DNA of 64,000 bases from an uncultured Spirochaetota bacterium (GTDB lineage Bacteria; Spirochaetota; UBA4802; UBA5550), in contig OW818666.1 in the NCBI GenBank assembly GCA_942493035.1, forward strand, positions 4,294,874-4,358,873, in the 5' to 3' direction. Shown here piece by piece: positions 34,669 to 64,000 of this stretch. The notes beneath the pieces were generated by a model, which was not told the DNA's origin, did not search any database, and saw only the letters and a list, made by a program, of their open reading frames with translations. Within the stretch, counting starts at the first letter, position 1. Each line of letters starts with the position of its first letter. A program made the translations under genes and the position numbers.

Positions 34669-34745
34669 AGGAAACCTCCTATGTAAAAGATAATAAATTG
34701 TGTGAAAATGTCAAGTATATTAACAAGTATAGTTTAAATGCAATT

Positions 34746-37476: not shown

Positions 37477-37549
37477 AACGGGGGGGCAAAACATCGGATA
37501 ACAAAGGCTAAACGCAGCGCCGGAGTACCGGCTTGGGCTGCGCCACATT

Positions 37550-39383: not shown

Positions 39384-39497
39384 AGCAACCTAATGTGGCT
39401 GAATACTTTTAGAACCTGGCAAAAAGATTTTAAAAGAAAATGAATTGAAAAACTCGCTAACGTCAGTTAGCGTGAACGTTATGCGAAAGAGCGGGGG

Positions 39498-40160: not shown

Positions 40161-40696
40161 AAATGTTTTTGTTTAAGAAACTCAATATATTTTTGTAAAT
40201 TCATGATTTTAGGTATATAATCTTTGGGGAAATCTTTCCTATATTTTTCAGGGACAACAAGTCTCACATTATACTTATACATCTCATCTAATTGTGTTTT
40301 TGAAATTCCTTGTTGAAGAGTAAATAAATATTTAACTTCGATTTTATCAGCTTCGTTTAAAATTTGTCGCCATCTATCTTTACAGGTAGTTTTGACAGCA
40401 AGAAATGTCATTTCATTGCCTGGAAATAGAATTTTTTTGTATAATTCAATATTTGGAAAAATAAAATCAGGTTTTTTATTCTGTTCTGTTACTGCTTGTG
40501 CAGAAAAAGGTATATGGTTTTCATCAAACATATATGATAAATGATTCTCTAGAGAATGACCGGCCCTTGATTTTCTCCTATTTAAAATGGAGTTTGCGAC
40601 CATTACTAAATTTTCAACTGAATCAAAAGTCTTACTAATGTATTGTTTATATCTATCATTTTCAGTACACAGATTCTTCCTGGAACCATCGAGCAT
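40157..40696 (-). CDS. small nuclease-like protein, possibly PD-(D/E)XK; N-terminus fused to IS1182-derived sequence
   Basis: 179 aa, 4-bp overlap with the glycosylase gene; the first 12 codons or so lie in the IS1182 fragment. Confidence 0.35.
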   Translation of the reverse strand: MLDGSRKNLCTENDRYKQYISKTFDSVENLVMVANSILNRRKSRAGHSLENHLSYMFDENHIPFSAQAVTEQNKKPDFIFPNIELYKKILFPGNEMTFLAVKTTCKDRWRQILNEADKIEVKYLFTLQQGISKTQLDEMYKYNVRLVVPEKYRKDFPKDYIPKIMNLQKYIEFLKQKHL

Positions 40697-42228: not shown

Positions 42229-42273
42229 AACAAAGGCTAAACGCGGCGCTCGGAGTACCTCGCTTGGCCTTCG
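42229..42273 (+). repeat. attC 5' half (R'' side) between IS1182 and IS110
   Basis: AACAAAGGCTAAACGCGGCGCTCGGAGTACCTCGCTTGGCC. Confidence 0.7.
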
Positions 42274-43760: not shown

Positions 43761-43765
43761 CACAC

Positions 43766-44863
43766 CCTGAATTCAAGTTTGAAATGCGACAAGATGGGAG
43801 TTTAAAATATCAGCAGGAGATTTCCAACCACGGGATTTTCTCGGCCTTGCGTTTATAGAAAAAATACTATCATCAATAAATTCATCTGTCAAGTGTGCGA
43901 AACTTTTTTTCTTTGGAAGATAATATCTGATACGCCCATTTATATGTTCATTAAGACCTCGTTGCCATGAGGAATAAGGATCAGCAAAATATACATTACA
44001 GTTAAGAGCATTTTCAATTGTCTTATGCATGCAAAATTCTGAACCATTATCAAATGTAATTGATTTAATAAATCCATCAGGTAATGAACCCAAAGCCTCT
44101 GTAATTCCTCGTGTAACAGTTTCCGCATCTTTTGAAGGCAATTTAATACCCCATGTAAATGCTGCTTTTCTTTCCACAAGAGTAAGAAGATATGCATCAT
44201 TTCCAGAGCTTACAATCAGATCCCCCTCAAGATGGCCTATTTCGCTTTTATCATTTGCTTCTTCAGGGCGTTCCCTTATATTCTTTTTCGAAGGATCTTT
44301 TGCCCTGTTTTTATAGGTATTTGAGCGATTTTGGCGTTTCTTCCGTTTTATAAATAAAAATTGAGTAAAACGATATTCACCCTTTTCATTTTTTTGAGCA
44401 TACAACCACTGATATATAGATTCGTGTGATAAGTGCATTGATGCATCTTCCAGAAACATTGTCTTTAGGTATTGAGAAATTAATTCGGGTGAATCGCCGT
44501 TCCTTAAAAAGGTTATAACTATCAAACGCAGTAAGCCATTGACATCAAGCTTTCTTTTTTTTAAATTTTTCCTCTTTAAATATTCCGCTTGAGCTTCTTG
44601 TGCATGATAGCCTTTTGTTTTATTCCTATCAATTTCGCGATAAACTGTTGATTTATCACGATTTAATAATTCAGCAGTTTCTTTCACAGGCTTATCTGAA
44701 TAAATCATTTTTTGCATGACAAATCTTTCTTCAAACTGTACTTGTTTAAAATGCCTCATGGGTATCTCTCTCGGATTTGGTTTTGGTCGACTCAATCCTT
44801 TATGGAGATTTCTCATGAGGCTACTATTTTAATTTCCTTTTGCATTTCAAACTTGAATTCAGG
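43766..44863 (-). mobile_element. IS30-family insertion sequence, copy 2
   Basis: Same 22-bp IRs; 2 amino-acid differences from copy 1; inserted 5 bp from the IS110 copy 1 end. Confidence 0.85.
43773..44816 (-). CDS. IS30-family transposase
   Basis: 347 aa, near-identical to 34793-35836. Confidence 0.85.
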   Translation of the reverse strand: MRNLHKGLSRPKPNPREIPMRHFKQVQFEERFVMQKMIYSDKPVKETAELLNRDKSTVYREIDRNKTKGYHAQEAQAEYLKRKNLKKRKLDVNGLLRLIVITFLRNGDSPELISQYLKTMFLEDASMHLSHESIYQWLYAQKNEKGEYRFTQFLFIKRKKRQNRSNTYKNRAKDPSKKNIRERPEEANDKSEIGHLEGDLIVSSGNDAYLLTLVERKAAFTWGIKLPSKDAETVTRGITEALGSLPDGFIKSITFDNGSEFCMHKTIENALNCNVYFADPYSSWQRGLNEHINGRIRYYLPKKKSFAHLTDEFIDDSIFSINARPRKSRGWKSPADILNSHLVAFQT

Positions 44864-44870
44864 AATTGCC

Positions 44871-45770: not shown

Positions 45771-45819
45771 CATAACGCCTTGCTTACACGACGTTGCGGC
45801 GGCCGTTTGCCGCAATGTG
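45771..45819 (-). repeat. attC 3' half (R' side) abutting IS110 copy 2
   Basis: CATAACGCCTTGCTTACACGACGTTGCGGCGGCCGTTTGCCGCAATGTG. Confidence 0.7.
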
Positions 45820-47306
45820 CCTATATGTTATGTTTGTATTAATTCAGATTTTTATTCTTTGTGTCATCTGAATTGATACTTATTCTTTTTATACTGGATA
45901 ATTCGGGAAGAACTCAATGTGCCTGCCTAACAAAGACTTCCTGCGGTTCTGTTCTCCCGAATTATATAACCTTTCAATACCATTTATAGTAAGTATGCTC
46001 CATCGAGAGCTCCTGATATATAGGCGAAATGGAATAAAAGGTTTCCACAATATCTATAAAAGGAGCGACTTATGAAAACTTACATTGGTATTGATTGGTC
46101 GTCAACACATGATGATGTATGTATTTTAAATGAAAAGGAGGAAGTTGTCAACAAGTTTCGTTTTGATGTAACGAAACAGGGCTTTAAGAAATTGATTGAT
46201 GCAATTGAAAATATACATTCTGCAAAGGAGGAAATTTTCATCGGTATTGAAACAGATAAAAATATTCTTGCGGATTATCTTCTTGCTTTAGGTTATCAGG
46301 TTTATGGATTGAATCCTTTTTGTGTTAATAGATTTAAAGACCGATATTCGGTGTCCTCAAAAAAAGATGATAACTTTGATGCGTACAATATTGCACTAAT
46401 ACTTTTTAAGGATTTTAATCGCTTTACCCCGATAATAAAATCTAGTAACAATTGTGAAGCGTTAAAAATGCACGGCAAAACACTTGAAATGCTTTTACAA
46501 GAAAAAACGCGTTTTGAAAACAGGTTGAAGAACGACTTGCATCAGTATTTCCCTATATTTACAGACTTTTTTGACGGTTTTACGAGCGTTCCACTGAATT
46601 TATTGAAAGTTTTAAATAAACCGGAACAGATAATAAATGCAACTTTCGAAGACTATCTTGAGTTGATTAAAGATGTTAAATATATGACTAAAAAAAGGAA
46701 GTCAGAATTTTATTGTTTATTAAAGGATCAAACAATATCTCCTAATAAAACTATACAGGAATGTTATTCCTTGAGAGTGTTGATTATTGTTGATCAATTA
46801 CTGTTCCTTATGAAATCGATAAAACAGGTAGAAGAAAAAATATTAATGTTGTACGCTGCGAATGAATATTCAACAATATTTTCTTCATTGCCGGGTGCTG
46901 CTGATCGACTAGCTCCAAGACTTTTAATGCATTTTGGGGATGTACAAAAGCGTTTTGAATCGTATCAAACTGTTCAATGTTATGCCGGTACATGTCCAGT
47001 AACAATTCAGAGTGGGAAATATTTACATGTCATTAAAATGCGAAGAGGTTGTAATAAATCATTTAGGGATACATTATATCAATTCTCATTTTGCAGTTTG
47101 AGCCTTGAAGCGTGGACTCGCGAATATTATGATCTATTACGTAAAAAAGGATGTAACCATTCTTCTGCTATTCGTGCTCTTTCGAATAAATGGGTTAAGA
47201 TAATATTTAGAATGTGGAAAGATAAAACTGTATATGATAAAGAGATTTTTCTTAAAAAAAGAAAAATTGCATGATTATTTTTTTAGAAAACTTGACATAG
47301 TAAGAC
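45820..47306 (+). mobile_element. IS110-family element, copy 2
   Basis: Identical to copy 1; inserted between ATGTG and GCGAAG of an attC centre. Confidence 0.8.
46072..47274 (+). CDS. IS110-family (DEDD) transposase
   Basis: 400 aa, identical to 42306-43508. Confidence 0.85.
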   Translation: MKTYIGIDWSSTHDDVCILNEKEEVVNKFRFDVTKQGFKKLIDAIENIHSAKEEIFIGIETDKNILADYLLALGYQVYGLNPFCVNRFKDRYSVSSKKDDNFDAYNIALILFKDFNRFTPIIKSSNNCEALKMHGKTLEMLLQEKTRFENRLKNDLHQYFPIFTDFFDGFTSVPLNLLKVLNKPEQIINATFEDYLELIKDVKYMTKKRKSEFYCLLKDQTISPNKTIQECYSLRVLIIVDQLLFLMKSIKQVEEKILMLYAANEYSTIFSSLPGAADRLAPRLLMHFGDVQKRFESYQTVQCYAGTCPVTIQSGKYLHVIKMRRGCNKSFRDTLYQFSFCSLSLEAWTREYYDLLRKKGCNHSSAIRALSNKWVKIIFRMWKDKTVYDKEIFLKKRKIA

Positions 47307-47355
47307 CGAAGGCCAAGCGAGGTACTCCGAGCGAAGCGTATAAGCTTTGTTATAT
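47307..47355 (-). repeat. attC 5' half (R'' side) after IS110 copy 2
   Basis: CGAAGGCCAAGCGAGGTACTCCGAGCGAAGCGTATAAGCTTTGTTATAT. Confidence 0.7.
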
Positions 47356-48195: not shown

Positions 48196-48301
48196 CATAT
48201 AACGTCTTGCTTAAACGACGTTTGCCAGTTTCACGGTAAATTTTGTATTGAACGAGTTTACCCAACACAAAAAATATTTGCCACTGAAAGTTGGCAAATG
48301 T
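48196..48301 (-). repeat. attC 3' half split by IS21 copy A
   Basis: CATATAACGTCTTGCTTAAACGACGTTTGCC...GCCACTGAAAGTTGGCAAATGTG; the other half lies at 56511-56567. Confidence 0.7.
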
Positions 48302-48476
48302 GCGTATTCCGGCCCAAACCTGCCACTCATTCCGGAAAATGCCTGCCACCTGTTCCGGTGCAAAGTTGCCACCCATTCCGGTTGAAACCTGCCACTTTTA
48401 GGATTTTACCGGAATAAAAAACAAACCATTTCCTTTTAAAACAGAGCCTGATTAATCTGATAAAAAATCAAATCAG

Positions 48477-50054
48477 ATGGAGTTACCGGGCATGTCACAA
48501 AGGAGAATATCGATGAAAAAAATCAGAGAAATCATGCGTCTTCACGAGCAGTCAAAACTTAGTCAGAGACAGATATCCCAAGCCCTTGGAATGTCTCGTC
48601 CGGTCGTCAGCGATTATATTAACAAGGTTAAAACATTCGGATTAACTTTTATTGATATAGAAAATATGCCGGATGAAACGCTTCTAAATATTCTACAGGG
48701 AAATAAAACAGCAGACAATAAACGACATGAAATACTTCAAAAACAATTCCTTCATTTCACGCAGGAGCTAAAACGTCTCGGAGTGACTCGCCAAACTTTG
48801 TGGGAAGAATACATAGAGGAAAATCCAGACGGATACAGTTACTCGCAGTTTTGTTATCATTTTCAGATCTGGCAGAATATGTCAGAGATTACAATGCACA
48901 TTGAACATAAAGCGGGCGACAAACTCTTTGTGGATTTTGCCGGTAAGAAACTTGCCATAACAGACCGGACGACAGGAGAGATAAGAGAGGTTGAAGTTTT
49001 TGTAGCAATCCTGGGAGCAAGCCAGCTTGTCTATGTAGAAGCTTCAATGAGCCAGAAGAAGGAGGAATGGATAAGACTAAATGAAAATGCATTAAGATAC
49101 ATCGATGGTGTTCCACTGGCTATTGTGCCAGACTGCTTAAAATCGGCAGTAACAAAAACAGACAGATACGAACCGGATATCAATCCGGAGTATCTTGATT
49201 TTGCCAGACATTACGGCACAACAATACTTCCTGCACGACCTGCAAAACCGAAAGACAAAGCTCTGGTTGAAGGAGCTGTACGAATTTCATATTCATGGAT
49301 TTACGCCAAGCTTCGTGACCGTGTATTCTTTTCACTTGAAGAACTCAACGCTGCGATCATGGAGTTGCTTGAATCATTCAATTCCCGGACAATGCAGCGA
49401 CCTGGTGTAAGTCGACGGGAACTTTTTGACAGCATTGAAAAGAGTGAACTGCAGCCTCTTCCAGAGGATCTTTATGAAATCAAGAAGTTTAAAATCCTCA
49501 CAGTTCAATTTAACTATCATATCTATCTGAGTGATGACAGTCATTACTACAGTGTGCCATATCGCTATAAAGGGCGGAAAGTAGAAGTACTTTTCACAGA
49601 AAGAGCCGTAGAAGTCTATTGTGGCAACGTAAGAGTCGCCTCACATTTTAGAAACAGGAGAAAAAACGGATACACAACACAAAGGAATCATATGCCGGAA
49701 TCACACAAATGGGAGGATAATTGGAACCCGGAAAAACTGACCAATATTGCAAAACTAAAAGGCGATGCTGTGGTAACTGTAATTGAAATAGTTCTCTCCT
49801 CCCGGCAGCATCCTGAGCAGAGTTATAAAACATGCCTCGGAATATTTGCCCTAACTAAAACATATGGAGAAATCCGACTTAACCGTGCTTGTGAATTGGC
49901 TCTCTACTATGAAAACTGCACATACAAGATGATTAAAAATATTCTAAGCAACAACATGGATCAAGCAGGTGAAGAAGATAAAGACTCGGAATTCACCCTA
50001 CCTGAACATGATAACATAAGAGGCAATCAATATTACATGGAGGAATTACAATGA
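48477..50054 (+). CDS. istA: IS21-family transposase IstA
   Basis: 525 aa; HTH N-terminus, integrase core. Confidence 0.85.
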   Translation: MELPGMSQRRISMKKIREIMRLHEQSKLSQRQISQALGMSRPVVSDYINKVKTFGLTFIDIENMPDETLLNILQGNKTADNKRHEILQKQFLHFTQELKRLGVTRQTLWEEYIEENPDGYSYSQFCYHFQIWQNMSEITMHIEHKAGDKLFVDFAGKKLAITDRTTGEIREVEVFVAILGASQLVYVEASMSQKKEEWIRLNENALRYIDGVPLAIVPDCLKSAVTKTDRYEPDINPEYLDFARHYGTTILPARPAKPKDKALVEGAVRISYSWIYAKLRDRVFFSLEELNAAIMELLESFNSRTMQRPGVSRRELFDSIEKSELQPLPEDLYEIKKFKILTVQFNYHIYLSDDSHYYSVPYRYKGRKVEVLFTERAVEVYCGNVRVASHFRNRRKNGYTTQRNHMPESHKWEDNWNPEKLTNIAKLKGDAVVTVIEIVLSSRQHPEQSYKTCLGIFALTKTYGEIRLNRACELALYYENCTYKMIKNILSNNMDQAGEEDKDSEFTLPEHDNIRGNQYYMEELQ

Positions 50055-50809
50055 ACAATCAGGGAACGATTGAAAAGATGCAGGAAATGCGTCTTCACGG
50101 AATGCTCAGTTCATTCCGTGAAACATTCTCTACAGATATGAAAAACAAGTTTACGGTTGATGAAATGGTCGCTCATCTCATCGATGCTGAATGGGATGAA
50201 AGGTATAACAGGAAATTTAAAACTCTGCTTAAAAATGCAGCCTTTAGATATAAGGCAAGTGTTGAAGAGATAGATTTCAAACCATCACGAAAAATTGACA
50301 GAAATCTGATACTCAGATTCTCGACATGTGACTGGATCAAAAAAGGAGAGAGCATTATCATCACCGGTTCTACAGGTGCAGGTAAAAGTTTTATGGCCTG
50401 CGCACTTGGTCATAAAGCATGTATTCTTCGTTATCAGGTTGGATACTACAACTGCTTGAAATTGTTTTCACATCTGAAGTACTGTAAAGTTGATGGATCA
50501 TATTTTAAAGAGATGAATAAAATTAAAAAACTGGATTTGATAATTCTTGATGACTTCGGATTAAAGCCTTTTGATTCAGACTCGCGGTTAATGTTACTTG
50601 AGATGCTTGAAGATCGCCACGGCAGCAGATCGATAATTATTAGTTCTCAAATTCCTACAGATAAGTGGTTTGATCTTATTGGGGATGCGACTATTGCGGA
50701 TGCAATCTGTGATAGACTTCTTCATACTTCACATAAAATAGACATTAAAGGAGATTCTATGAGAAAGGAAAAATCAAAAAATTCTGGACGAAACCTGCCA
50801 CTTGAGTAA
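50051..50809 (+). CDS. istB: IS21-family helper ATPase IstB
   Basis: Walker A motif GSTGAGKSF, 252 aa. Confidence 0.85.
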   Translation: MNNQGTIEKMQEMRLHGMLSSFRETFSTDMKNKFTVDEMVAHLIDAEWDERYNRKFKTLLKNAAFRYKASVEEIDFKPSRKIDRNLILRFSTCDWIKKGESIIITGSTGAGKSFMACALGHKACILRYQVGYYNCLKLFSHLKYCKVDGSYFKEMNKIKKLDLIILDDFGLKPFDSDSRLMLLEMLEDRHGSRSIIISSQIPTDKWFDLIGDATIADAICDRLLHTSHKIDIKGDSMRKEKSKNSGRNLPLE

Positions 50810-51094
50810 TGGTTAGTTCGAAAATGGAAATGGATTAAAAGTGGTAAACTTAAAACCGGAATAGGTGGCAGGTTTCACCGGAATACGTAATTTTACCAGA
50901 TAATTTAATAAAACGTCGCGATGAATTGTTAAATTTAAAAAAAACATTATTAGGTGAATCGACTCAGAAAAATAAAACCACAGATTAAAAGTACATCCGT
51001 GTACTTTTAAAAATTTATAGTAATAAACGCCAAAAACATCGTACAACAAAGGCTAACAGCAGCGCCGGAGTACCGGCTTGGGCTTCGCCACATT

Positions 51095-52928
51095 GTGTGT
51101 CACGCAAGGAGTATAGAAGATGAAGGAGGGCCCTTCGGAGCCGGTATACAGGTACAGGCTTCAAACCGCCTTAAGCTGCATTGGTAAAGAGCTATTGTGG
51201 TGAGCGTTAAGGAAAAGGCGTGATAAACACGTCAGGTGCGTTACACGGAGACAAACGCAAGTGAATCATTGATGAGGTGTCGAAAGAGCCTACAGTTGAA
51301 GTCAAAACCGGGGTACAATGTGGATTTCGGGATAAATCTGAGAGAAACCTGTCTACTGCTCAGGTGGCTTCCGGCATAAAGATGGTGTGACTGTGTAACA
51401 GGCTTTTATATTCAACGTGAGAACCTGTCGTTTTGATGTTAAGGGAGAACTTCAAGCGGAGGCCCCGCGAGAAAGAGAGTACCGAAGCAAAGCACAGGGG
51501 CGGAGTGGTTCGTAGTAGTGAAGAAGTCTCTGTAATGGAGATGGAGCGAAGGAATCACGTTGTTCAGCTTTAAAGATTGATCAACCGGAAAACGGGAGGA
51601 GTTGATTGGATAAAGCAAAACCGTATTATATTTCCAAACATAATGTCTGGGAAAGCTACAAACAGGTAAAAGCAAACAGGGGTGCTCCCGGCGTTGATGG
51701 CGTAAATCTGGCAGATTTTGAGGCAGAATTGAAAAATAATCTGTATAAAATCTGGAACCGGATGTCATCTGGAAGTTATGTACCTTCTCCTGTGCGTCGG
51801 GTTGAGATACCGAAAAGCGATGGGAAAACCCGGACACTCGGGATTCCCACAGTGTCTGACCGGATAGCGCAGATGGTAGTCAAACGTGAGCTCGAACCGG
51901 TATTGGAAAAAGTATTTCATCACAGCTCTTACGGATATCGCCCGATGCGGTCTGCAAAAGATGCTGTTGCAAGTGCCCGTAAAAACTGCTGGAAATACGA
52001 CTGGGTGTTAGACATCGACATTAAAGGATTTTTCGATAATATCGATCATGACCTCATGATGAAAGCAGTACGTCGGCATACAGAAAGCGGATGGGTTAGA
52101 CTGTACATAGAGCGATGGCTGAAAGCACCCGTTATGACAACTGAAGAAGGCCTTCAGCAACGAACACAGGGAACACCTCAGGGCGGAGTGATAAGCCCGC
52201 TTCTTGCAAATCTGTTTCTTCATTATGCATTTGATGTCTGGATGGGGAAAAATTATCCGTCAGTATCTTTTGAAAGATATGCGGATGACTGTATCTGTCA
52301 CTGCCGCACTGAAGATGAGGCAGTCAGGCTGAAGGAAGCGCTGGAAAAGAGAATGGCTGAATGCAGGCTCGAACTCCATCCGGAAAAGACAAAGATAGTA
52401 TATTGTAGAGATGACGCAAGAAAGGGCAGCTACCCGGTAGAATGCTTTGATTTTCTGGGTTTTACATTTAAAGCACGAAGGTCAAAGACGAAGCATGGGA
52501 AATATTTTATCAACTTCAGTCCAGCGGCGAGTGATAAGGCATTGAAGAACATGAGAATAACCATGAAAGCGTGGAATGTTCATCAGCGAAGCAGAGAATC
52601 ACTTGAGGAATTATCCTGTAGGTTCAATGCGAAAATCAGAGGATGGATCAACTATTATGGGAGTTTTTACAGATCAGCGATGTACCCGACTTTACGTAAT
52701 TTTGATTTAATTCTTTCGAGATGGGCAATGAAGAAATATAAACGTTTAAGAAATCACAAACGGAGAGCCAGGCACTGGATAGAACGTATTGCGATGAAAG
52801 AGCCGTGTTTATTTTCGCATTGGAGAATTCTTTACGGTAACGGTTGAACAACAAGAGCCGGATGAATCGAGAGATTCACGTCCGGTTCCGTGAGAGCGTA
52901 GAGGGGAGGTTCCTCTGCGCCACTCGAC
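51095..52928 (+). mobile_element. group II intron, copy 2
   Basis: Identical to copy 1. Confidence 0.85.
51606..52847 (+). CDS. group II intron RT/maturase
   Basis: Identical 413-aa ORF. Confidence 0.9.
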   Translation: MDKAKPYYISKHNVWESYKQVKANRGAPGVDGVNLADFEAELKNNLYKIWNRMSSGSYVPSPVRRVEIPKSDGKTRTLGIPTVSDRIAQMVVKRELEPVLEKVFHHSSYGYRPMRSAKDAVASARKNCWKYDWVLDIDIKGFFDNIDHDLMMKAVRRHTESGWVRLYIERWLKAPVMTTEEGLQQRTQGTPQGGVISPLLANLFLHYAFDVWMGKNYPSVSFERYADDCICHCRTEDEAVRLKEALEKRMAECRLELHPEKTKIVYCRDDARKGSYPVECFDFLGFTFKARRSKTKHGKYFINFSPAASDKALKNMRITMKAWNVHQRSRESLEELSCRFNAKIRGWINYYGSFYRSAMYPTLRNFDLILSRWAMKKYKRLRNHKRRARHWIERIAMKEPCLFSHWRILYGNG

Positions 52929-53092
52929 AGCAACCTAATGTGGCTGAATACTTTTTGTTTTGGGCAAACTGATTTTTAAAAAAAATGAGTTGTTAAACTC
53001 GCTAACGTCAGTTAGCCAAGACGTTATATGTAATGGCAACAAAATTTAAGACCGGGCGTCCATGCCCGGAGAGAAAAGAGGAAATTAATCCT

Positions 53093-53806
53093 ATGAATAA
53101 AATTATAACAGTCGCATTTATTCTATTATTCTTTTCAAAAAGCTATTCTGCAGATAAACACTTATTGATATTTAAACCAATTGAAAACTTGAAATATAAA
53201 ATACAGATTCAGCCTGCTCCAGAATCAGTAATATTAAATAAACTTTTTGGTGCGTATTCTTCCAATAGCATTTTTAAGATGTCTATCAAGGAAAATGATA
53301 AAAATACTTACAAAGTAACATCTTCCTTGATAATATTTAATAAATCAAGCTGTTGTAATCCACTAACTTATCCTGGTTATTTTATTACAACAGATAGAGA
53401 AATTGAAAATATCATAAGCCCTACCGGAGAATTTATTGATAATAGTAATGACTATCTATCAATGGGATGCATATTTGGCTTTAACATTTTAAAACTCAAT
53501 AATAAAGAGAAAAACATTAAACCAGTGATAATTCCTTTTTATTTCCCTGATAAAGAAATTTCAATTGGTGAATCATGGACCTGTAAATTTGAATTTGATG
53601 ATAATGTAAATGCTAACCCATTGTTCATTGATTATACAATAAAAAAAGTATCTGATAATATTGCATATATAGATGGTTACAGTTTAGATAGATTACATAT
53701 CACTGCACAATTTAATATTACAAAAGGTTGTTGGACTAACTATAAGATGTTCGTCAAAAAAGATTCAGAAGAATATTTATTTAAAAGTTTTGAGTTAATA
53801 GAATAG
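53093..53806 (+). CDS. secreted/lipoprotein-like cassette protein
   Basis: Signal peptide MNKIITVAFILLFFSKSYSA; identical to 60970-61683 on the opposite strand; the ORF-track N-terminal extension is translation of the upstream hairpin. Confidence 0.6.
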   Translation: MNKIITVAFILLFFSKSYSADKHLLIFKPIENLKYKIQIQPAPESVILNKLFGAYSSNSIFKMSIKENDKNTYKVTSSLIIFNKSSCCNPLTYPGYFITTDREIENIISPTGEFIDNSNDYLSMGCIFGFNILKLNNKEKNIKPVIIPFYFPDKEISIGESWTCKFEFDDNVNANPLFIDYTIKKVSDNIAYIDGYSLDRLHITAQFNITKGCWTNYKMFVKKDSEEYLFKSFELIE

Positions 53807-53924
53807 GCACAATGCCTTCGCCCATCCGTGGGCTACGGCAGACCGAACTTTGTGTAAATGTTGCCACTACATATAACAAAGGCTAACAGCGGCGCCGGAG
53901 TACCGGCTTGGGCTTCGCCACATT

Positions 53925-55758
53925 GTGTGTCACGCAAGGAGTATAGAAGATGAAGGAGGGCCCTTCGGAGCCGGTATACAGGTACAGGCTTCAAACCGCC
54001 TTAAGCTGCATTGGTAAAGAGCTATTGTGGTGAGCGTTAAGGAAAAGGCGTGATAAACACGTCAGGTGCGTTACACGGAGACAAACGCAAGTGAATCATT
54101 GATGAGGTGTCGAAAGAGCCTACAGTTGAAGTCAAAACCGGGGTACAATGTGGATTTCGGGATAAATCTGAGAGAAACCTGTCTACTGCTCAGGTGGCTT
54201 CCGGCATAAAGATGGTGTGACTGTGTAACAGGCTTTTATATTCAACGTGAGAACCTGTCGTTTTGATGTTAAGGGAGAACTTCAAGCGGAGGCCCCGCGA
54301 GAAAGAGAGTACCGAAGCAAAGCACAGGGGCGGAGTGGTTCGTAGTAGTGAAGAAGTCTCTGTAATGGAGATGGAGCGAAGGAATCACGTTGTTCAGCTT
54401 TAAAGATTGATCAACCGGAAAACGGGAGGAGTTGATTGGATAAAGCAAAACCGTATTATATTTCCAAACATAATGTCTGGGAAAGCTACAAACAGGTAAA
54501 AGCAAACAGGGGTGCTCCCGGCGTTGATGGCGTAAATCTGGCAGATTTTGAGGCAGAATTGAAAAATAATCTGTATAAAATCTGGAACCGGATGTCATCT
54601 GGAAGTTATGTACCTTCTCCTGTGCGTCGGGTTGAGATACCGAAAAGCGATGGGAAAACCCGGACACTCGGGATTCCCACAGTGTCTGACCGGATAGCGC
54701 AGATGGTAGTCAAACGTGAGCTCGAACCGGTATTGGAAAAAGTATTTCATCACAGCTCTTACGGATATCGCCCGATGCGGTCTGCAAAAGATGCTGTTGC
54801 AAGTGCCCGTAAAAACTGCTGGAAATACGACTGGGTGTTAGACATCGACATTAAAGGATTTTTCGATAATATCGATCATGACCTCATGATGAAAGCAGTA
54901 CGTCGGCATACAGAAAGCGGATGGGTTAGACTGTACATAGAGCGATGGCTGAAAGCACCCGTTATGACAACTGAAGAAGGCCTTCAGCAACGAACACAGG
55001 GAACACCTCAGGGCGGAGTGATAAGCCCGCTTCTTGCAAATCTGTTTCTTCATTATGCATTTGATGTCTGGATGGGGAAAAATTATCCGTCAGTATCTTT
55101 TGAAAGATATGCGGATGACTGTATCTGTCACTGCCGCACTGAAGATGAGGCAGTCAGGCTGAAGGAAGCGCTGGAAAAGAGAATGGCTGAATGCAGGCTC
55201 GAACTCCATCCGGAAAAGACAAAGATAGTATATTGTAGAGATGACGCAAGAAAGGGCAGCTACCCGGTAGAATGCTTTGATCTTCTGGGTTTTACATTTA
55301 AAGCACGAAGGTCAAAGACGAAGCATGGGAAATATTTTATCAACTTCAGTCCAGCGGCGAGTGATAAGGCATTGAAGAACATGAGAATAACCATGAAAGC
55401 GTGGAATGTTCATCAGCGAAGCAGAGAATCACTTGAGGAATTATCCTGTAGGTTCAATGCGAAAATCAGAGGATGGATCAACTATTATGGGAGTTTTTAC
55501 AGATCAGCGATGTACCCGACTTTACGTAATTTTGATTTAATTCTTTCGAGATGGGCAATGAAGAAATATAAACGTTTAAGAAATCACAAACGGAGAGCCA
55601 GGCACTGGATAGAACGTATTGCGATGAAAGAGCCGTGTTTATTTTCGCATTGGAGAATTCTTTACGGTAACGGTTGAACAACAAGAGCCGGATGAATCGA
55701 GAGATTCACGTCCGGTTCCGTGAGAGCGTAGAGGGGAGGTTCCTCTGCGCCACTCGAC
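53925..55758 (+). mobile_element. group II intron, copy 3
   Basis: Identical except for one substitution (F to L in the RT). Confidence 0.85.
54436..55677 (+). CDS. group II intron RT/maturase
   Basis: 413 aa. Confidence 0.9.
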   Translation: MDKAKPYYISKHNVWESYKQVKANRGAPGVDGVNLADFEAELKNNLYKIWNRMSSGSYVPSPVRRVEIPKSDGKTRTLGIPTVSDRIAQMVVKRELEPVLEKVFHHSSYGYRPMRSAKDAVASARKNCWKYDWVLDIDIKGFFDNIDHDLMMKAVRRHTESGWVRLYIERWLKAPVMTTEEGLQQRTQGTPQGGVISPLLANLFLHYAFDVWMGKNYPSVSFERYADDCICHCRTEDEAVRLKEALEKRMAECRLELHPEKTKIVYCRDDARKGSYPVECFDLLGFTFKARRSKTKHGKYFINFSPAASDKALKNMRITMKAWNVHQRSRESLEELSCRFNAKIRGWINYYGSFYRSAMYPTLRNFDLILSRWAMKKYKRLRNHKRRARHWIERIAMKEPCLFSHWRILYGNG

Positions 55759-55861
55759 GCGCAAAAGGCCGCGCAACGTCGGGTAAGCAAGACGTTATGT
55801 GCCATTTTTTTTCTTGACTTTACACATAGAATTGTGTAAATTATTCAGAGAGGTTATTTAT

Positions 55862-56059
55862 ATGGCTACTAATTTAAATATCGATATGAAACTGTTAGAT
55901 GAAGTTTATCAAATAGGAAATTTCAAAACAAAAAAAGAAGCAGTAAACGTCGCGCTTAAGGAATATATTCAGAAACATAGACAAAAAGACATTTTGAAAT
56001 ATCTAAATGCTGTTGATTTTGATAAAGACTATGATTACAAAAAAGCTCGAAATAGATGA
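55862..56059 (+). CDS. VapB-like antitoxin
   Basis: Small ORF (MATNLNIDMKLLDEV...) with stop/start overlap with the PIN gene. Confidence 0.55.
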   Translation: MATNLNIDMKLLDEVYQIGNFKTKKEAVNVALKEYIQKHRQKDILKYLNAVDFDKDYDYKKARNR

Positions 56060-56493
56060 CAAGATTCATTATAGATACATCCGTATGGTCAGAAGCACTT
56101 CGACGAAAGAAGAAAACTGTAAATTCGTCAGATACTATTGTTAGAAAGATTATAGAAAATGATGATGAAATTGTTGTTGTAGGCATTATCCTTCAAGAAA
56201 TTCTAACTAGCATTGCAGATGAAAAACTGTTTAGAGAAATTAAAGATATCCTGGATGATTTTTTATATTTAGATATTACAAAAAATGATTTCATTTACGC
56301 TTCCGAGTTAAATAATAAATGCAGATCTAAAGGAATTAATGCTGGATCAATTGATTTTTTAATTGCAAGCGTTGCCATCAGAAACGAACTAGAATTGGTC
56401 ACTTTCGACAAAGACTTTTTTAATATTAGCAAGTATACAGATTTAAAAATTTTAGACGTAGGCCGTTTCCTTGATAATAAAACTGAAAATTAA
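56056..56493 (+). CDS. vapC: PIN-domain toxin VapC
   Basis: IIDTSVW...TFDKDF PIN motifs. Confidence 0.75.
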   Translation: MTRFIIDTSVWSEALRRKKKTVNSSDTIVRKIIENDDEIVVVGIILQEILTSIADEKLFREIKDILDDFLYLDITKNDFIYASELNNKCRSKGINAGSIDFLIASVAIRNELELVTFDKDFFNISKYTDLKILDVGRFLDNKTEN

Positions 56494-56510
56494 ACCGAAA
56501 AAAAACGGCA

Positions 56511-56567
56511 CATAACAAAGCTTAAACGCAGCGCTCGGAGTACCTCGCTTGGTCTGCGCCACATTTA
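56511..56567 (+). repeat. attC 5' half split by IS21 copy B
   Basis: CATAACAAAGCTTAAACGCAGCGCTCGGAGTACCTCGCTTGGTCTGCGCCACATTTA. Confidence 0.7.
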
Positions 56568-56645
56568 CGTATTCCGGTGAAACCTGCCACCTATTCCGGT
56601 TTTAAGTTTACCACTTTTAATCCATTTCCATTTTCGAACTAACCA

Positions 56646-57404
56646 TTACTCAAGTGGCAGGTTTCGTCCAGAATTTTTTGATTTTTCCTTTCTCATAGAA
56701 TCTCCTTTAATGTCTATTTTATGTGAAGTATGAAGAAGTCTATCACAGATTGCATCCGCAATAGTCGCATCCCCAATAAGATCAAACCACTTATCTGTAG
56801 GAATTTGAGAACTAATAATTATCGATCTGCTGCCGTGGCGATCTTCAAGCATCTCAAGTAACATTAACCGCGAGTCTGAATCAAAAGGCTTTAATCCGAA
56901 GTCATCAAGAATTATCAAATCCAGTTTTTTAATTTTATTCATCTCTTTAAAATATGATCCATCAACTTTACAGTACTTCAGATGTGAAAACAATTTCAAG
57001 CAGTTGTAGTATCCAACCTGATAACGAAGAATACATGCTTTATGACCAAGTGCGCAGGCCATAAAACTTTTACCTGCACCTGTAGAACCGGTGATGATAA
57101 TGCTCTCTCCTTTTTTGATCCAGTCACATGTCGAGAATCTGAGTATCAGATTTCTGTCAATTTTTCGTGATGGTTTGAAATCTATCTCTTCAACACTTGC
57201 CTTATATCTAAAGGCTGCATTTTTAAGCAGAGTTTTAAATTTCCTGTTATACCTTTCATCCCATTCAGCATCGATGAGATGAGCGACCATTTCATCAACC
57301 GTAAACTTGTTTTTCATATCTGTAGAGAATGTTTCACGGAATGAACTGAGCATTCCGTGAAGACGCATTTCCTGCATCTTTTCAATCGTTCCCTGATTGT
57401 TCAT
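56646..57404 (-). CDS. istB: IstB ATPase
   Basis: Identical to 50051-50809. Confidence 0.85.
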   Translation of the reverse strand: MNNQGTIEKMQEMRLHGMLSSFRETFSTDMKNKFTVDEMVAHLIDAEWDERYNRKFKTLLKNAAFRYKASVEEIDFKPSRKIDRNLILRFSTCDWIKKGESIIITGSTGAGKSFMACALGHKACILRYQVGYYNCLKLFSHLKYCKVDGSYFKEMNKIKKLDLIILDDFGLKPFDSDSRLMLLEMLEDRHGSRSIIISSQIPTDKWFDLIGDATIADAICDRLLHTSHKIDIKGDSMRKEKSKNSGRNLPLE

Positions 57405-58978
57405 TGTAATTCCTCCATGTAATATTGATTGCCTCTTATGTTATCATGTTCAGGTAGGGTGAATTCCGAGTCTTTATCTTCTTCACCTGCTTGATCCATG
57501 TTGTTGCTTAGAATATTTTTAATCATCTTGTATGTGCAGTTTTCATAGTAGAGAGCCAATTCACAAGCACGGTTAAGTCGGATTTCTCCATATGTTTTAG
57601 TTAGGGCAAATATTCCGAGGCATGTTTTATAACTCTGCTCAGGATGCTGCCGGGAGGAGAGAACTATTTCAATTACAGTTACCACAGCATCGCCTTTTAG
57701 TTTTGCAATATTGGTCAGTTTTTCCGGGTTCCAATTATCCTCCCATTTGTGTGATTCCGGCATATGATTCCTTTGTGTTGTGTATCCGTTTTTTCTCCTG
57801 TTTCTAAAATGTGAGGCGACTCTTACGTTGCCACAATAGACTTCTACGGCTCTTTCTGTGAAAAGTACTTCTACTTTCCGCCCTTTATAGCGATATGGCA
57901 CACTGTAGTAATGACTGTCATCACTCAGATAGATATGATAGTTAAATTGAACTGTGAGGATTTTAAACTTCTTGATTTCATAAAGATCCTCTGGAAGAGG
58001 CTGCAGTTCACTCTTTTCAATGCTGTCAAAAAGTTCCCGTCGACTTACACCAGGTCGCTGCATTGTCCGGGAATTGAATGATTCAAGCAACTCCATGATC
58101 GCAGCGTTGAGTTCTTCAAGTGAAAAGAATACACGGTCACGAAGCTTGGCGTAAATCCATGAATATGAAATTCGTACAGCTCCTTCAACCAGAGCTTTGT
58201 CTTTCGGTTTTGCAGGTCGTGCAGGAAGTATTGTTGTGCCGTAATGTCTGGCAAAATCAAGATACTCCGGATTGATATCCGGTTCGTATCTGTCTGTTTT
58301 TGTTACTGCCGATTTTAAGCAGTCTGGCACAATAGCCAGTGGAACACCATCGATGTATCTTAATGCATTTTCATTTAGTCTTATCCATTCCTCCTTCTTC
58401 TGGCTCATTGAAGCTTCTACATAGACAAGCTGGCTTGCTCCCAGGATTGCTACAAAAACTTCAACCTCTCTTATCTCTCCTGTCGTCCGGTCTGTTATGG
58501 CAAGTTTCTTACCGGCAAAATCCACAAAGAGTTTGTCGCCCGCTTTATGTTCAATGTGCATTGTAATCTCTGACATATTCTGCCAGATCTGAAAATGATA
58601 ACAAAACTGCGAGTAACTGTATCCGTCTGGATTTTCCTCTATGTATTCTTCCCACAAAGTTTGGCGAGTCACTCCGAGACGTTTTAGCTCCTGCGTGAAA
58701 TGAAGGAATTGTTTTTGAAGTATTTCATGTCGTTTATTGTCTGCTGTTTTATTTCCCTGTAGAATATTTAGAAGCGTTTCATCCGGCATATTTTCTATAT
58801 CAATAAAAGTTAATCCGAATGTTTTAACCTTGTTAATATAATCGCTGACGACCGGACGAGACATTCCAAGGGCTTGGGATATCTGTCTCTGACTAAGTTT
58901 TGACTGCTCGTGAAGACGCATGATTTCTCTGATTTTTTTCATCGATATTCTCCTTTGTGACATGCCCGGTAACTCCAT
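57401..58978 (-). CDS. istA: IstA transposase
   Basis: Identical to 48477-50054. Confidence 0.85.
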   Translation of the reverse strand: MELPGMSQRRISMKKIREIMRLHEQSKLSQRQISQALGMSRPVVSDYINKVKTFGLTFIDIENMPDETLLNILQGNKTADNKRHEILQKQFLHFTQELKRLGVTRQTLWEEYIEENPDGYSYSQFCYHFQIWQNMSEITMHIEHKAGDKLFVDFAGKKLAITDRTTGEIREVEVFVAILGASQLVYVEASMSQKKEEWIRLNENALRYIDGVPLAIVPDCLKSAVTKTDRYEPDINPEYLDFARHYGTTILPARPAKPKDKALVEGAVRISYSWIYAKLRDRVFFSLEELNAAIMELLESFNSRTMQRPGVSRRELFDSIEKSELQPLPEDLYEIKKFKILTVQFNYHIYLSDDSHYYSVPYRYKGRKVEVLFTERAVEVYCGNVRVASHFRNRRKNGYTTQRNHMPESHKWEDNWNPEKLTNIAKLKGDAVVTVIEIVLSSRQHPEQSYKTCLGIFALTKTYGEIRLNRACELALYYENCTYKMIKNILSNNMDQAGEEDKDSEFTLPEHDNIRGNQYYMEELQ

Positions 58979-59069
58979 CTGATTTGATTTTTTATCAGAT
59001 TAATCAGGCTCTGTTTTAAAAGGAAATGGTTTGTTTTTTATTCCGGTAAAATCCTAAAAGTGGCAGGTT

Positions 59070-59435
59070 TCAACCGGAATGGGTGGCAACTTTGCACCGG
59101 AACAGGTGGCAGGCATTTTCCGGAATGAGTGGCAGGTTTGGGCCGGAATACGCAAAAATATAGATTTGGAATAAAACTTCAGCTATTGAGGCTAACATTA
59201 TTCTTATGTGTTTACTTTCCCATTTATCATAAGAATTTTCATGAACTTTCGAACTTGTTAATTCTTGAATGGTAATGAGTGTATCAAAATACAATGGATC
59301 AACATTGGAGAATATTTTTTTTAAAGCTTTTATTCTTGCATTATAGTCAGAACCATCAGCATTATGTTTATGTGCGAGTTCATATATTATTTTCCTGATA
59401 CAAACAGAGCTACCTGTTAAAAAATTATTTTTCAA
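59070..59435 (-). pseudogene. cassette ORF with its 3' end fused to or interrupted by the IS21 copy B terminus
   Basis: The last 25 codons or so are read from the IS21 end sequence. Confidence 0.5.
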
Positions 59436-59504
59436 ACAGCCTTCGGCTTCAAAAAATAATTCTCTTAATGATTTCGGAATGTTTTCATCTAAGACAAAGC
59501 TTGA

Positions 59505-59816
59505 TTATGGGATTGATAAAAAAATATATTTATCTAAGTCTGAAATAACCTCGTGATGTTTAGCTAATTGTGTCGCTGTAAATTTTCCATTTATATTAAA
59601 TGGTATAATCTTATCTGAAAAATGGATTGAAATTTTATTACATGAATCACATTGAATCTGATATAAATGACATTCTTTTTCATTAGTCCAATCAAATGTA
59701 AATTCATCAAGAAAAGAAAATTGAACATGCCTTCTTTTACAAAAAGGACAATTGTAGGTATGAGAATCAATAAAATACTTATTATCCAAGTTACTTTGAT
59801 CATATGTTTTTTTCAT
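59505..59816 (-). CDS. Cys-rich (CxxC...CxxC) small cassette protein
   Basis: 103 aa with CPFC...CDSC; in the same cassette as 59070-59435, with no attC between them. Confidence 0.5.
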   Translation of the reverse strand: MKKTYDQSNLDNKYFIDSHTYNCPFCKRRHVQFSFLDEFTFDWTNEKECHLYQIQCDSCNKISIHFSDKIIPFNINGKFTATQLAKHHEVISDLDKYIFLSIP

Positions 59817-59882
59817 AGTAATAATTCCTTATATTGAGCCATGGATGGCGAATCTTTTTTTAAAAGTTAAGCCAAAAATGTC

Positions 59883-59981
59883 GTACAACGTCTTGCTTAC
59901 CCGACGTCGCGCGGCCTTTTGCGCGATGTGGCGAAGCCCAAGTGAGGTACTCCGAACGCCGCGGGTAAGCTTTGTTATATG
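59883..59981 (-). repeat. attC-like site (type GCTTACCCG)
   Basis: GTACAACGTCTTGCTTACCCGACGTCGCGCGGCCTTTTGCGCGATGTGGCGAAGCCCAAGTGAGGTACTCCGAACGCCGCGGGTAAGCTTTGTTATAT. Confidence 0.75.
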
Positions 59982-60066
59982 ATGCGACGTGCGTTGATAA
60001 AAAAAGGAATTAAAAAAAAGGCATAGTTTACCTACTATGCCTTCAGAAATAGTTCAATGGGTAAGG

Positions 60067-60639
60067 TTATTTTAATTTTATAGCAATTTTCTTTTCAATT
60101 TGAGCATCAGTATATTTAGGGAATGATTTTTTAAAATTTGATATATCCACTATGGAATTGTCTGCAATATCGATTCTAGTTAAATACACCCTCGTCCCCT
60201 TATCAACTTTCTGATTAGTAAGATATGCAGTGAGCTGACCTATGTAATTTATTTTATTTTCATCTATGGTAAACTTATAGCCGTACATTGCTTTGTTGAT
60301 ATCACTTAAATTTGAAAAGTAAACTGGACCAGCTCCACTATGTAATTGTACTGAATCAAGAATGTATTCACCTTTTGGTAAATATAAGTATTGGGTATTA
60401 CCTGATAAACTGTTCCGATAATAATATGATATATTAGTTTCAGTATTTTTAATCCAAATAGTCATAGGTACTTTTGAAAAACTATTATCCCAAGAGTTTG
60501 AAAATTGGAACACTAAAATTCCAATTCCATTATTATCCTGAAGTGTGTCACTGCTTTTTAAAACATGCGGTGCAGAGCTACAGCCTATTAAAAACAAAAG
60601 CATAAGTATTGAAATAAAATAAATTTGAATTTTTTTCAC
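60067..60639 (-). CDS. lipoprotein (GTG start)
   Basis: Signal peptide with lipobox LIGCSS. Confidence 0.6.
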   Translation of the reverse strand: MKKIQIYFISILMLLFLIGCSSAPHVLKSSDTLQDNNGIGILVFQFSNSWDNSFSKVPMTIWIKNTETNISYYYRNSLSGNTQYLYLPKGEYILDSVQLHSGAGPVYFSNLSDINKAMYGYKFTIDENKINYIGQLTAYLTNQKVDKGTRVYLTRIDIADNSIVDISNFKKSFPKYTDAQIEKKIAIKLK

Positions 60640-60750
60640 GAATAGACCTCTTTTTTAAATTTTTCATAAGTATTCATTTTTTCGTATATGTCAATTACTA
60701 TTTTATAGCGTACTGTTTTTTATGGATATAGAAAGTTAAGCACGTCGTTT

Positions 60751-60906
60751 CATATAACGTCTTGGCTAACTGACGATAGCGAGTTTTACAACTAATTTTT
60801 TTTAAAATCAGTTTGCCAGGTACTAAAAGTATTCAGCCACATTAGGTTGCTAATGTGGCGAAGCCCAAGCCGGTACTCCGGCGCCGCTGTTAGCCTTTGT
60901 TATATG
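60751..60906 (-). repeat. attC-like site (type GGCTAAC)
   Basis: CATATAACGTCTTGGCTAACTGACGATAGCGAG...GCCACATTAGGTTGCTAATGTGGCGAAGCCCAAGCCGGTACTCCGGCGCCGCTGTTAGCCTTTGTTATAT. Confidence 0.75.
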
Positions 60907-60969
60907 TAGTGGCAACATTTACACAAAGTTCGGTCTGCCGTAGCCCACGGATGGGCGAAGGCATTGTGC

Positions 60970-61683
60970 CTATTCTATTAACTCAAAACTTTTAAATAAA
61001 TATTCTTCTGAATCTTTTTTGACGAACATCTTATAGTTAGTCCAACAACCTTTTGTAATATTAAATTGTGCAGTGATATGTAATCTATCTAAACTGTAAC
61101 CATCTATATATGCAATATTATCAGATACTTTTTTTATTGTATAATCAATGAACAATGGGTTAGCATTTACATTATCATCAAATTCAAATTTACAGGTCCA
61201 TGATTCACCAATTGAAATTTCTTTATCAGGGAAATAAAAAGGAATTATCACTGGTTTAATGTTTTTCTCTTTATTATTGAGTTTTAAAATGTTAAAGCCA
61301 AATATGCATCCCATTGATAGATAGTCATTACTATTATCAATAAATTCTCCGGTAGGGCTTATGATATTTTCAATTTCTCTATCTGTTGTAATAAAATAAC
61401 CAGGATAAGTTAGTGGATTACAACAGCTTGATTTATTAAATATTATCAAGGAAGATGTTACTTTGTAAGTATTTTTATCATTTTCCTTGATAGACATCTT
61501 AAAAATGCTATTGGAAGAATACGCACCAAAAAGTTTATTTAATATTACTGATTCTGGAGCAGGCTGAATCTGTATTTTATATTTCAAGTTTTCAATTGGT
61601 TTAAATATCAATAAGTGTTTATCTGCAGAATAGCTTTTTGAAAAGAATAATAGAATAAATGCGACTGTTATAATTTTATTCAT
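60970..61683 (-). CDS. secreted/lipoprotein-like cassette protein (duplicate of 53093-53806)
   Basis: Identical amino-acid sequence; start placed at MNKII after the RBS. Confidence 0.6.
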   Translation of the reverse strand: MNKIITVAFILLFFSKSYSADKHLLIFKPIENLKYKIQIQPAPESVILNKLFGAYSSNSIFKMSIKENDKNTYKVTSSLIIFNKSSCCNPLTYPGYFITTDREIENIISPTGEFIDNSNDYLSMGCIFGFNILKLNNKEKNIKPVIIPFYFPDKEISIGESWTCKFEFDDNVNANPLFIDYTIKKVSDNIAYIDGYSLDRLHITAQFNITKGCWTNYKMFVKKDSEEYLFKSFELIE

Positions 61684-61745
61684 AGGATTAATTTCCTCTT
61701 TTCTCTCCGGGCATGGACGCCCGGTCTTAAATTTTGTTGCCATTA

Positions 61746-61903
61746 CATATAACGTCTTGCTTATACGACGCTTGCCAAGTTTACTGGAAATTTTATATTC
61801 TATAAGTTTATACAAATCAAGTAGTTTTTTGCCACGACAAGTGGCAAGTGTGGCGAAGCCCAAGCGAGGTACTCCGAGCGCAGCGTATAAGCTTTGTTAT
61901 ATG
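61746..61903 (-). repeat. attC-like site (type GCTTATACG)
   Basis: CATATAACGTCTTGCTTATACGACGCTTGCC...GTGGCGAAGCCCAAGCGAGGTACTCCGAGCGCAGCGTATAAGCTTTGTTATAT. Confidence 0.75.
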
Positions 61904-61940
61904 GCGTAGCAAAAAATTGCAGAATCAATTTTCAATAAAA

Positions 61941-63953: not shown

Positions 63954-64000
63954 TTCAGTTATTTTTTTAATTTCATTCTTATCAAATCCTATTTCTTCGA

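Follow-up and report, generated by a model that had tools for sequence, protein, structure and literature searches.

A chimeric attC site at a group II intron in a Spirochaetota cassette array, and its probable origin by recombination between intron copies

The stretch of DNA described here (the window: 64,000 nucleotides (nt) of contig OW818666.1, from an uncultured Spirochaetota bacterium) contains a recombination site of the attC type whose two halves, separated by a group II intron, belong to different attC classes, as well as two copies of the cassette to which the first of these halves belongs. From 1 to 32.5 kb the window carries ordinary chromosomal genes (Sua5, GGDEF, MCP, ABC ATPase, ECH and PadR), and from ~32.5 kb to its end at 64000 it is an array of short cassettes with attC sites of 100-165 nt in between. 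An 880-aa OmpA-family protein encoded in the window is matched by a 100%-identical entry on an NCBI contig of 4,946,450 bp, and its closest named relatives come from Spirochaetota metagenome-assembled genomes. The cassettes are short, mostly promoterless units of a single gene or a toxin-antitoxin pair (VapBC, PIN, RelE/HTH, ParE and BrnT/BrnA are frequent); they are co-oriented, with an attC after each, and R''/R' cores (RYYYAAC...GTTRRRY) are present at every attC as ATATAAC...GTTATAT and variants. We consider it likely that 32.5-64 kb belongs to a chromosomal integron and forms the distal part of its cassette array, a judgement made jointly with the whole of the explanation developed below. 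In 12/12 cassettes the open reading frame(s) (ORFs) lie directly upstream of the R''-side attC half, which would place the integrase end of the array beyond 64000; the array continues past that position, and neither a tyrosine recombinase nor intI was found among the ORFs of the window that were scanned. The features most directly concerned are the following.

53024-53924, + strand: cassette copy A, with its 5' untranslated region (UTR), the ORF 53093-53806 (237 amino acids, aa) and the attC 5' half 53866-53924; 0 mismatches to 61752-60852 (- strand)
60758-61752, - strand: cassette copy B, complete, 995 nt, ORF 61683-60970
60748-60911, - strand: native complete attC of copy B, 5' half 60911-60852 (identical to 53865-53924) and 3' half 60851-60758
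53925-55758, + strand: group II intron copy 3, reverse transcriptase (RT) ORF 54436-55677, boundaries from uninterrupted attCs
55759-55800, + strand: foreign 3' half of the chimeric attC, short class, GCGCAAAAGGCCGCGCAACGTCGGGTAAGCAAGACGTTATGT, with the R' crossover between 55794 and 55795
59874-59981, - strand: intact short-class attC, L'' GCTTACCCG and L' CGGGTAAGC, 9/9 pairs, the reference for the foreign 3' half
55862-56493, + strand: toxin-antitoxin cassette of VapB (55862-56059) and VapC/PIN (56056-56493), from Pfam domains
51036-51094, + strand: 5' half of the attC carrying intron 2, L'' GGCTAAC, ending in ...CGCCACATT
51095-52928, + strand: group II intron copy 2, RT/maturase ORF 51606-52847, candidate exon-binding site 1 (EBS1) AATGTGG at 51317-51323
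52929-53023, + strand: 3' half of the attC carrying intron 2, AGCAACC...GTTAGCCAAGACG, ending at the R' G where copy A starts
37550-39383, + strand: group II intron copy 1, between the attC 5' half 37491-37549 (L'' GGCTAAACG) and the 3' half 39384-39476 (AGCAACC...CAGTTAGCG)

When both cassette copies are aligned with their flanks, 53017-53924 (+) and 61759-60852 (-) are identical at 908/908 nt, where a looser initial repeat call had given 933 nt at 99%; an earlier note, made from the letters of the window, had described the copies as identical including the 5' UTR and the 5' half of the attC, and this is borne out. The identity ends on the right exactly at 53924/60852, and base 53925 is the first of intron 3 (GTGTG). 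The attC of copy B runs without interruption (...CGCCACATT|AGCAACCTAATGTGGC...GTTAGCCAAGACG), its 5' half being followed at 60851-60758 by AGCAACCTAATGTGGC...GTTAGCCAAGACG, and its L box retains 7 contiguous pairs (8/9 in total). Because this site is intact, it fixes the boundaries of the intron and supplies the sequence to be expected after the intron in copy A. What follows intron 3 in place of that sequence is GCGCAAAAGGCCGCGCAACGTCGGGTAAGCAAGACG (55759-55794), a 3' half of the type seen in a short attC class, intact members of which lie at 59981-59874 and at 34036-33935; the foreign half differs from the latter at one position and agrees with the former at 35/38. The sequence thus has a chimeric attC at intron 3, composed of two attC classes, as had been claimed from the change of attC type downstream of the intron.

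The integrity of the sites was scored by explicit counts of L''/L' pairing in the L boxes of all attCs after alignment; folding of whole attCs by minimum free energy with DNA parameters was dropped, since sites of 160 nt often form local hairpins and the result is undiagnostic. All uninterrupted attCs (8/8: seven native and one restored by removal of an insertion sequence (IS) of the IS21 family) have 7-9 contiguous Watson-Crick L''/L' pairs, and this pairing is kept across five L sequences (GGCTAAACG, GGCTAAC, GCTTATACG, GCTTACCCG and GCTTAAACG), from which it follows that it is maintained by compensatory change. The attC at intron 3 has 5/9 pairs with 1 contiguous. The attC at intron 2 pairs normally (7 contiguous L-box pairs), and that at intron 1 has 6/9 pairs with 0 contiguous, its 5' half being of the GGCTAAACG type and its 3' half of the AGCAACC type. 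Mismatched attCs are thus found at 2/3 intron sites vs 0/8 intact sites, for which a Fisher test by hand, with its three intron sites, gives p = 3/55 = 0.055; a mismatched attC of a related genome (L083, described below) was kept out of this count, as its mismatch does not break at the intron. The mismatch at intron 1, together with the unusual TGAAC spacer of the 3' half there (AGCAACC...CAGTTAGCG), points to a second rearrangement associated with an intron.

The breakpoint at the intron 3 site is confined to the 1,834-nt intron plus 18 nt that are common to both parental classes (53907-53924), so that the coincidence of breakpoint and intron proposed in the earlier note holds for almost all of the interval, the remainder being attC sequence. 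It might therefore be supposed that the chimera came first, through a short-homology or slippage deletion at the common 18-nt stretch CTTGGGCTTCGCCACATT, and that the intron homed afterwards into a site that was already chimeric. This stretch stands directly upstream of the insertion point in all attC 5' halves, and the intron apparently needs only the 5' module, CCACATT and an A or G next to it, by which measure it would still recognize a chimeric site. We nevertheless regard this order of events as improbable: none of the intron-free attCs (0/8) is chimeric, a second intron-bearing attC (that of intron 1) is also mismatched, and 18 nt, being ~100x shorter, is a very poor substrate for recombination in comparison with 1,834 identical nt.

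Intron copies 1 and 2 share one sequence, from which copy 3 departs by one single-nucleotide polymorphism (SNP) in 1,834 nt (55282 T>C, F283L). The 3' half expected for copy A is found nowhere in the window (the best matches are 86/95 and 82/95), and its loss is what a deletion predicts; the 3' attC half of intron 2 is 86/95 identical to that of copy B and hence is a different sequence from the half that copy A lacks. Deletion through homologous recombination between group II intron copies has been documented (PMC4424553), and homologous recombination between two introns is the most economical cause to propose for the chimera. By the same explanation, and with the same fairly good probability that we attach to it as a whole, copy A and the VapBC cassette would have been fused through the chimeric site into a unit that the integrase could no longer excise.

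The duplication of the cassette appears to have a separate origin. The 908-nt identity begins on the left within CAAGACG|TT, which is common to all attCs and corresponds to the crossover G|TT of R'; the R' G lies at 53023, copy A starts at 53024 and copy B at 61752. Since the left edge of the repeat coincides with the crossover point of IntI and the attC of copy B is complete, the duplication looks as if it was made by the integron integrase. Unequal crossing-over between introns was considered as another source of the duplication and rejected: it predicts for intron 2 a 3' exon equal to the 3' half of the attC that precedes copy B (TGCCACTT...CGTATAAGC), and the actual exon is AGCAACC...GTTAGCC.

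The earlier note had also offered intron-assisted cassette formation as a cause. In the model of Leon and Roy (2009) a transcript of gene, intron and attC would be spliced and copied to DNA by the RT, giving a new cassette or a retro-duplicated one, and it is true that an intron in sense orientation could be spliced from cassette transcripts and that the recombination step of the model (as outlined in PMC7923331) predicts exactly such a joint. The intermediate of that model has a gene's transcriptional terminator for a 5' exon and part of an attC for a 3' exon; at intron 3 the 5' exon comes from the attC that belongs to the cassette itself, is 100% identical to the 5' half of the intact attC of copy B, and is not a terminator. 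Moreover, copy B has a native, complete attC with paired halves, the intron has not been removed, no spliced complementary DNA product was seen, and the repeat is bounded on the left by the integrase crossover. Cassette formation of this kind seems to us very improbable, and the proposal is not upheld.

As to the product of the duplicated cassette, the label 'lipoprotein' that it had been given does not hold: the protein has a signal peptide (MNKIITVAFILLFFSKSYSA, window 53093-53170), no lipobox cysteine, and a Pfam match to DUF6263 that is below threshold. Exact-match protein look-ups for the cassette protein (with two starts), the RT of intron copy 3, VapC and Sua5 returned no identical entry. 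The cassette between copy B and the short attC does encode what looks like a lipoprotein, and another 190-aa cassette protein, at 63405-62833 (FTSC), is also lipoprotein-like.

60067-60639, - strand: lipoprotein cassette, 190 aa, lipobox LIGC, no Pfam match

The opposite orientation of the two cassette copies is explained by a pair of IS21-family elements and the sequences that they have separated.

48196-48300, - strand: 3' half of the VapBC cassette attC, L' CGTTTAAGC, R' GTTATAT, split from its 5' half by IS21 and inversion
48301-50890, + strand: IS21-family copy 1, istA 48477-50054 and istB 50051-50809, with IstB_IS21, rve and Mu-transpos_C_2 domains
50895-50988, + strand: C-terminal 31 codons and stop of a 251-aa cassette ORF
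56506-56564, + strand: 5' half of the VapBC cassette attC, L'' GCTTAAACG, with IS21 directly after ...CCACATT
56565-59154, - strand: IS21-family copy 2
59155-59816, - strand: N-terminal part of the 251-aa cassette ORF, cut by IS21, with the 5-bp duplication ATTTT at 59159-59155 (-) and 50890-50894 (+)

The two IS21 copies are inverted relative to each other and 100% identical over 2,590 nt, with the ends TGCGTATTCCGG and CCGGAATACGTA. Their flanks match crosswise and not within a copy: AATG (48297-48300) corresponds to CATT (56561-56564), and ATTTT (50890-50894) to AAAAT, the reverse complement of 59155-59159, so that the segment has to be un-inverted before AATG and ATTTT reappear as target duplications. 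The same operation joins 56506-56564 to the reverse complement of 48196-48296 and yields an attC with 9/9 contiguous L-box pairs, and it joins the reverse complement of 59155-59880 to 50895 onward and yields an ORF that aligns without gaps over 251/251 residues, at 73% identity, with its homologue P0001, straight through the junction ...FQIYI|LPDNLIKRR...; 468 further homologues, mostly of ~250 aa, cover 93-100% of the rejoined ORF. At the level of the sequence, the crosswise duplications, the restored ORF and the restored attC together establish that the segment 50891-56564 (5.7 kb) is inverted by recombination between the IS21 copies, in which the introns were not involved, and this inversion accounts for the inverted orientation of the cassette copies. 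Read in its un-inverted form, the sequence is one array in which the cassette copies are direct repeats, with the lipoprotein cassette and the 251-aa cassette between them. A composite transposon of the form IS21-segment-IS21 was rejected, as the outer flanks have no common duplication and the crosswise flanks match.

Two further observations concern these elements. The IS21 at the VapBC attC (56561-56565 / 48297-48301; duplication CATT) is inserted directly after attC ...CCACATT, at the same phosphodiester as all three introns. The 251-aa ORF contains a TAA (59507-59505, - strand) at residue 104, which is Ser104 in P0001, and is a pseudogene apart from the IS21 insertion.

The structure of the region might accordingly be read as the result of four separate events (duplication, intron spread, intron-intron deletion and IS21 inversion), a history that we believe more probable than its competitors taken together. 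The 995-nt cassette would first have been copied through excision and re-insertion by the integrase. The intron would then have spread recently, presumably by retrohoming, to at least three attCs, where its positions are seen directly after the mini-hairpin and CCACATT of the 5' module. RecA-type recombination might have followed between two co-oriented introns, one in the attC of copy A and the other in a short-class attC just upstream of VapBC, with loss of the intervening DNA; such an event would leave a single intron with the 5' half from one attC in front of it and the 3' half from the other attC behind it, which is the composition of the observed chimera. Finally, two identical IS21 elements would have inserted, one in the attC after VapBC and one in the 251-aa ORF, and would have inverted 50891-56564. 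Of the intron-mediated recombination that had been suggested for the whole arrangement, the part that concerns the chimera stands as its best cause, given that the intron copies are at most 1 nt apart in 1,834 and that the attC of intron 1 is mismatched too; the duplication, with its left edge at G|TT, and the inverted orientation, due to IS21, are not products of the introns. We regard the chimera and the link between it and the intron as well founded and the mechanism as probably intron-intron recombination, whereas duplication and orientation have other, ordinary causes.

Several points weigh against this history. The deleted segment and the parental short attC with its intron are unobserved, and the single SNP among the introns does not place the crossover. 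The 18-nt stretch common to all attCs adjoins the insertion site, and a short-homology deletion that preceded the intron would give the same sequence. The polarity of the array is deduced from the placement of ORFs in the 12/12 cassettes and from spacer asymmetry, with no intI in the window, and the two target duplications of IS21 are unequal (4 and 5 bp). Lastly, the sequence is that of an assembly, which may have taken a wrong path through the 1.8-kb repeat. An assembly artefact would consist of a wrong pairing of entry and exit at a collapsed intron repeat, an arbitrary orientation between the inverted IS21 copies, or both, and the window is indeed rich in near-identical repeats (three of 1.8 kb, two of 2.6 kb, two of 1.5 kb and two of 1.1 kb); in a short-read assembly of another run, the 100%-identical intron RT (P0121) occurs only on an isolated 1.4-kb Logan contig. 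The source of the window, by contrast, is a single contig of 4.95 Mb, and so probably derives from long reads that span such repeats, and intron copy 3 has retained its private SNP. Nor does any re-pairing of the three 5' flanks (GGCTAAACG, GGCTAAC and GGCTAAC) with the three 3' flanks (two AGCAACC-type and one short) in the window pair all attCs. On balance we take an artefact to be a little less probable even than a chimera that preceded the intron.

The intron on which the proposed recombination depends can be placed in some detail. All three copies are recognized by Rfam matches to RF01999 (117 bits) and RF00029 (56 bits), D1-D4 and DV/DVI, and the intron ends are GTGTG...CGAC. The intron ORF has RVT_1 and GIIM domains and no endonuclease (En) domain, and the closest solved RTs are those of group IIC (~1e-53, vs ~1e-35 for IIB and IIA); by this RT similarity, from which the class is taken, the En-less intron is closest to group IIC. 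In all three copies the insertion lies directly after ...CCACATT, in sense relative to the cassettes and in the middle of the attC, between a conserved 5' module and a variable centre. A sequence AATGTGG at intron position 223, in domain I, is able to pair with CCACATT, as a candidate EBS1 with its intron-binding site 1 (IBS1) of 7 bp; an IBS1-EBS1 pairing of 7 bp exceeds the length usual for group IIC. A GC mini-hairpin precedes CCACATT, and RNAalifold applied to the conserved 5' module gave no compensatory pairs. The canonical target of group IIC-attC introns (bottom strand, R'' TTGT/T, antisense) is seen neither at the three copies nor at the relative in L083.

This relative is found in a related genome of 4.27 Mb (L083), in which a 77%-identical RT lies at the same junction, GCCACATT|GCGCAAAAG, in sense to the neighbouring ORFs and with AATGTGG conserved; no further attC of this family was found within 10 kb of the L083 intron. 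The sequences on both sides of that intron (L083 9430-9490 and 11323-11365) are of the short class, yet L' CGTATAGCC is unpaired with L'' GCTTACCCG. In a scan of a genome collection with the RT, the best relatives were at most 67% identical and showed other kinds of target, namely hairpins and the stretch of other RT genes that encodes YADD. Many close RT relatives (55-67%, from other phyla) are nested in the YADD-motif sequence of another group II intron RT (L002, L003, L011, L014, L017, L019, L041-L047, L050, L065, L070 and L072). A plasmid search with the intron RT gave only generic matches of at most 64%, a metagenome scan for GCCACATTGTGTGTCACG gave 42 loci, none of them in an attC, and database searches for parental or reciprocal arrangements returned nothing usable. 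On ~30 soil-metagenome contigs (L086-L127) the junction GCCACATT|GTGTGTCACG occurs in one conserved site that is not an attC (...GATGATTGTGCCACATT), from which it appears that related introns share the CCACATT IBS1 in a different target. One might go further and imagine a separate Spirochaetota lineage of attC-homing introns that recognize a conserved top-strand module in mid-attC, insert in sense, can be spliced from cassette transcripts and routinely fuse, delete and reshuffle cassettes through their copies (of which 2/3 here lie in attCs that do not pair), the present case being a natural instance of the recombination step of Leon and Roy; we think such a generalization doubtful, albeit less so than any of the alternatives weighed above.

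Other elements of the array bear less directly on the chimera. Its mobile elements comprise three group II introns, two IS21, two IS110-family, two IS30-family and one IS3-family element, together with IS1182-like pieces.

42229-43764 (- strand) and 45816-47351 (+ strand): IS110-family elements, DEDD transposase of 400 aa, two identical copies
34740-35854 (+ strand) and 43755-44869 (- strand): IS30-family inverted pair
40157-40696, - strand: EcoRII-C-like restriction-enzyme cassette, on the strand opposite to the attC of intron 1

Each of the two IS110-family copies has entered a different attC, at one and the same point of the conserved 5' module (...CTTGGCCTTCGG|TCTTAC...), and the attC halves around copy 2 are 8/9 paired with one T-G. 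The IS30 pair encloses the only other plus-oriented stretch of the array (the BrnT/BrnA cassette, intron 1 and the attC at 42252), and from these orientations a second IS-mediated inversion, between the IS30 copies, is likely; the target duplications of IS30 measure 2-3 bp. The EcoRII-C-like cassette abuts and overlaps (40643-40696) an IS1182-like element at 40643-42115 (+), and a 303-nt inverted IS1182-like fragment (32668-32970) marks the chromosomal end of the array.

These findings touch on the questions of how genes gain attC sites and how large chromosomal arrays are remodelled without the integrase. A natural attC chimera with its breakpoint in an intron indicates that intron copies can join the halves of different recombination sites, and such joining is a step that the intron model of cassette genesis assumes, undocumented as it has been in nature. 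A target on the sense strand in mid-attC also widens the known use of integrons by introns. The practical effect is modest, in that several cassettes are locked in an immobile block.

With respect to known systems, inversion between inverted IS copies belongs to the general biology of these elements, and the IS21 case described here is ordinary except that one copy lies at the attC position of the introns; the site-specific targeting of attCs by the IS110-family copies is similar to that of the IS1111-attC group. The introns themselves resemble the group IIC-attC introns (S.ma.I2 and its relatives), which likewise are En-less, encode an RT/maturase and are present in several copies in attC sites, and the solved RTs closest to that of the window are of group IIC. 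In their canonical form, the IIC-attC introns occupy the bottom strand of the attC, with R'' (TTGT/T) as the insertion point and an antisense orientation relative to the cassettes (PMC3001079, PMC7923331), whereas the intron of the window lies in mid-attC, in sense, after a module that ends in CCACATT. A likeness in cassette orientation and use of the attC top strand is offered by the sense group IIC intron of an Enterobacter cloacae integron (as cited in PMC7923331); that case is a single report from a mobile class 1 integron, and the likeness is one of description. In the model of Leon and Roy (as given in PMC7923331 and PMC3001079), intron-intron recombination likewise brings together the 5' flank from one site and, from another, the 3' part of an attC; here, by contrast, both partners are attCs of existing cassettes, and the outcome is fusion or deletion, with no new link between gene and attC and no spliced or reverse-transcribed product seen. 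The nested-intron arrays (PMC4424553) are comparable in that intron copies serve as portable homology and recombination removes the DNA between them, but there the introns lie within introns, whereas here their flanks are integron recombination sites and the scar that is left is an attC whose halves do not pair.

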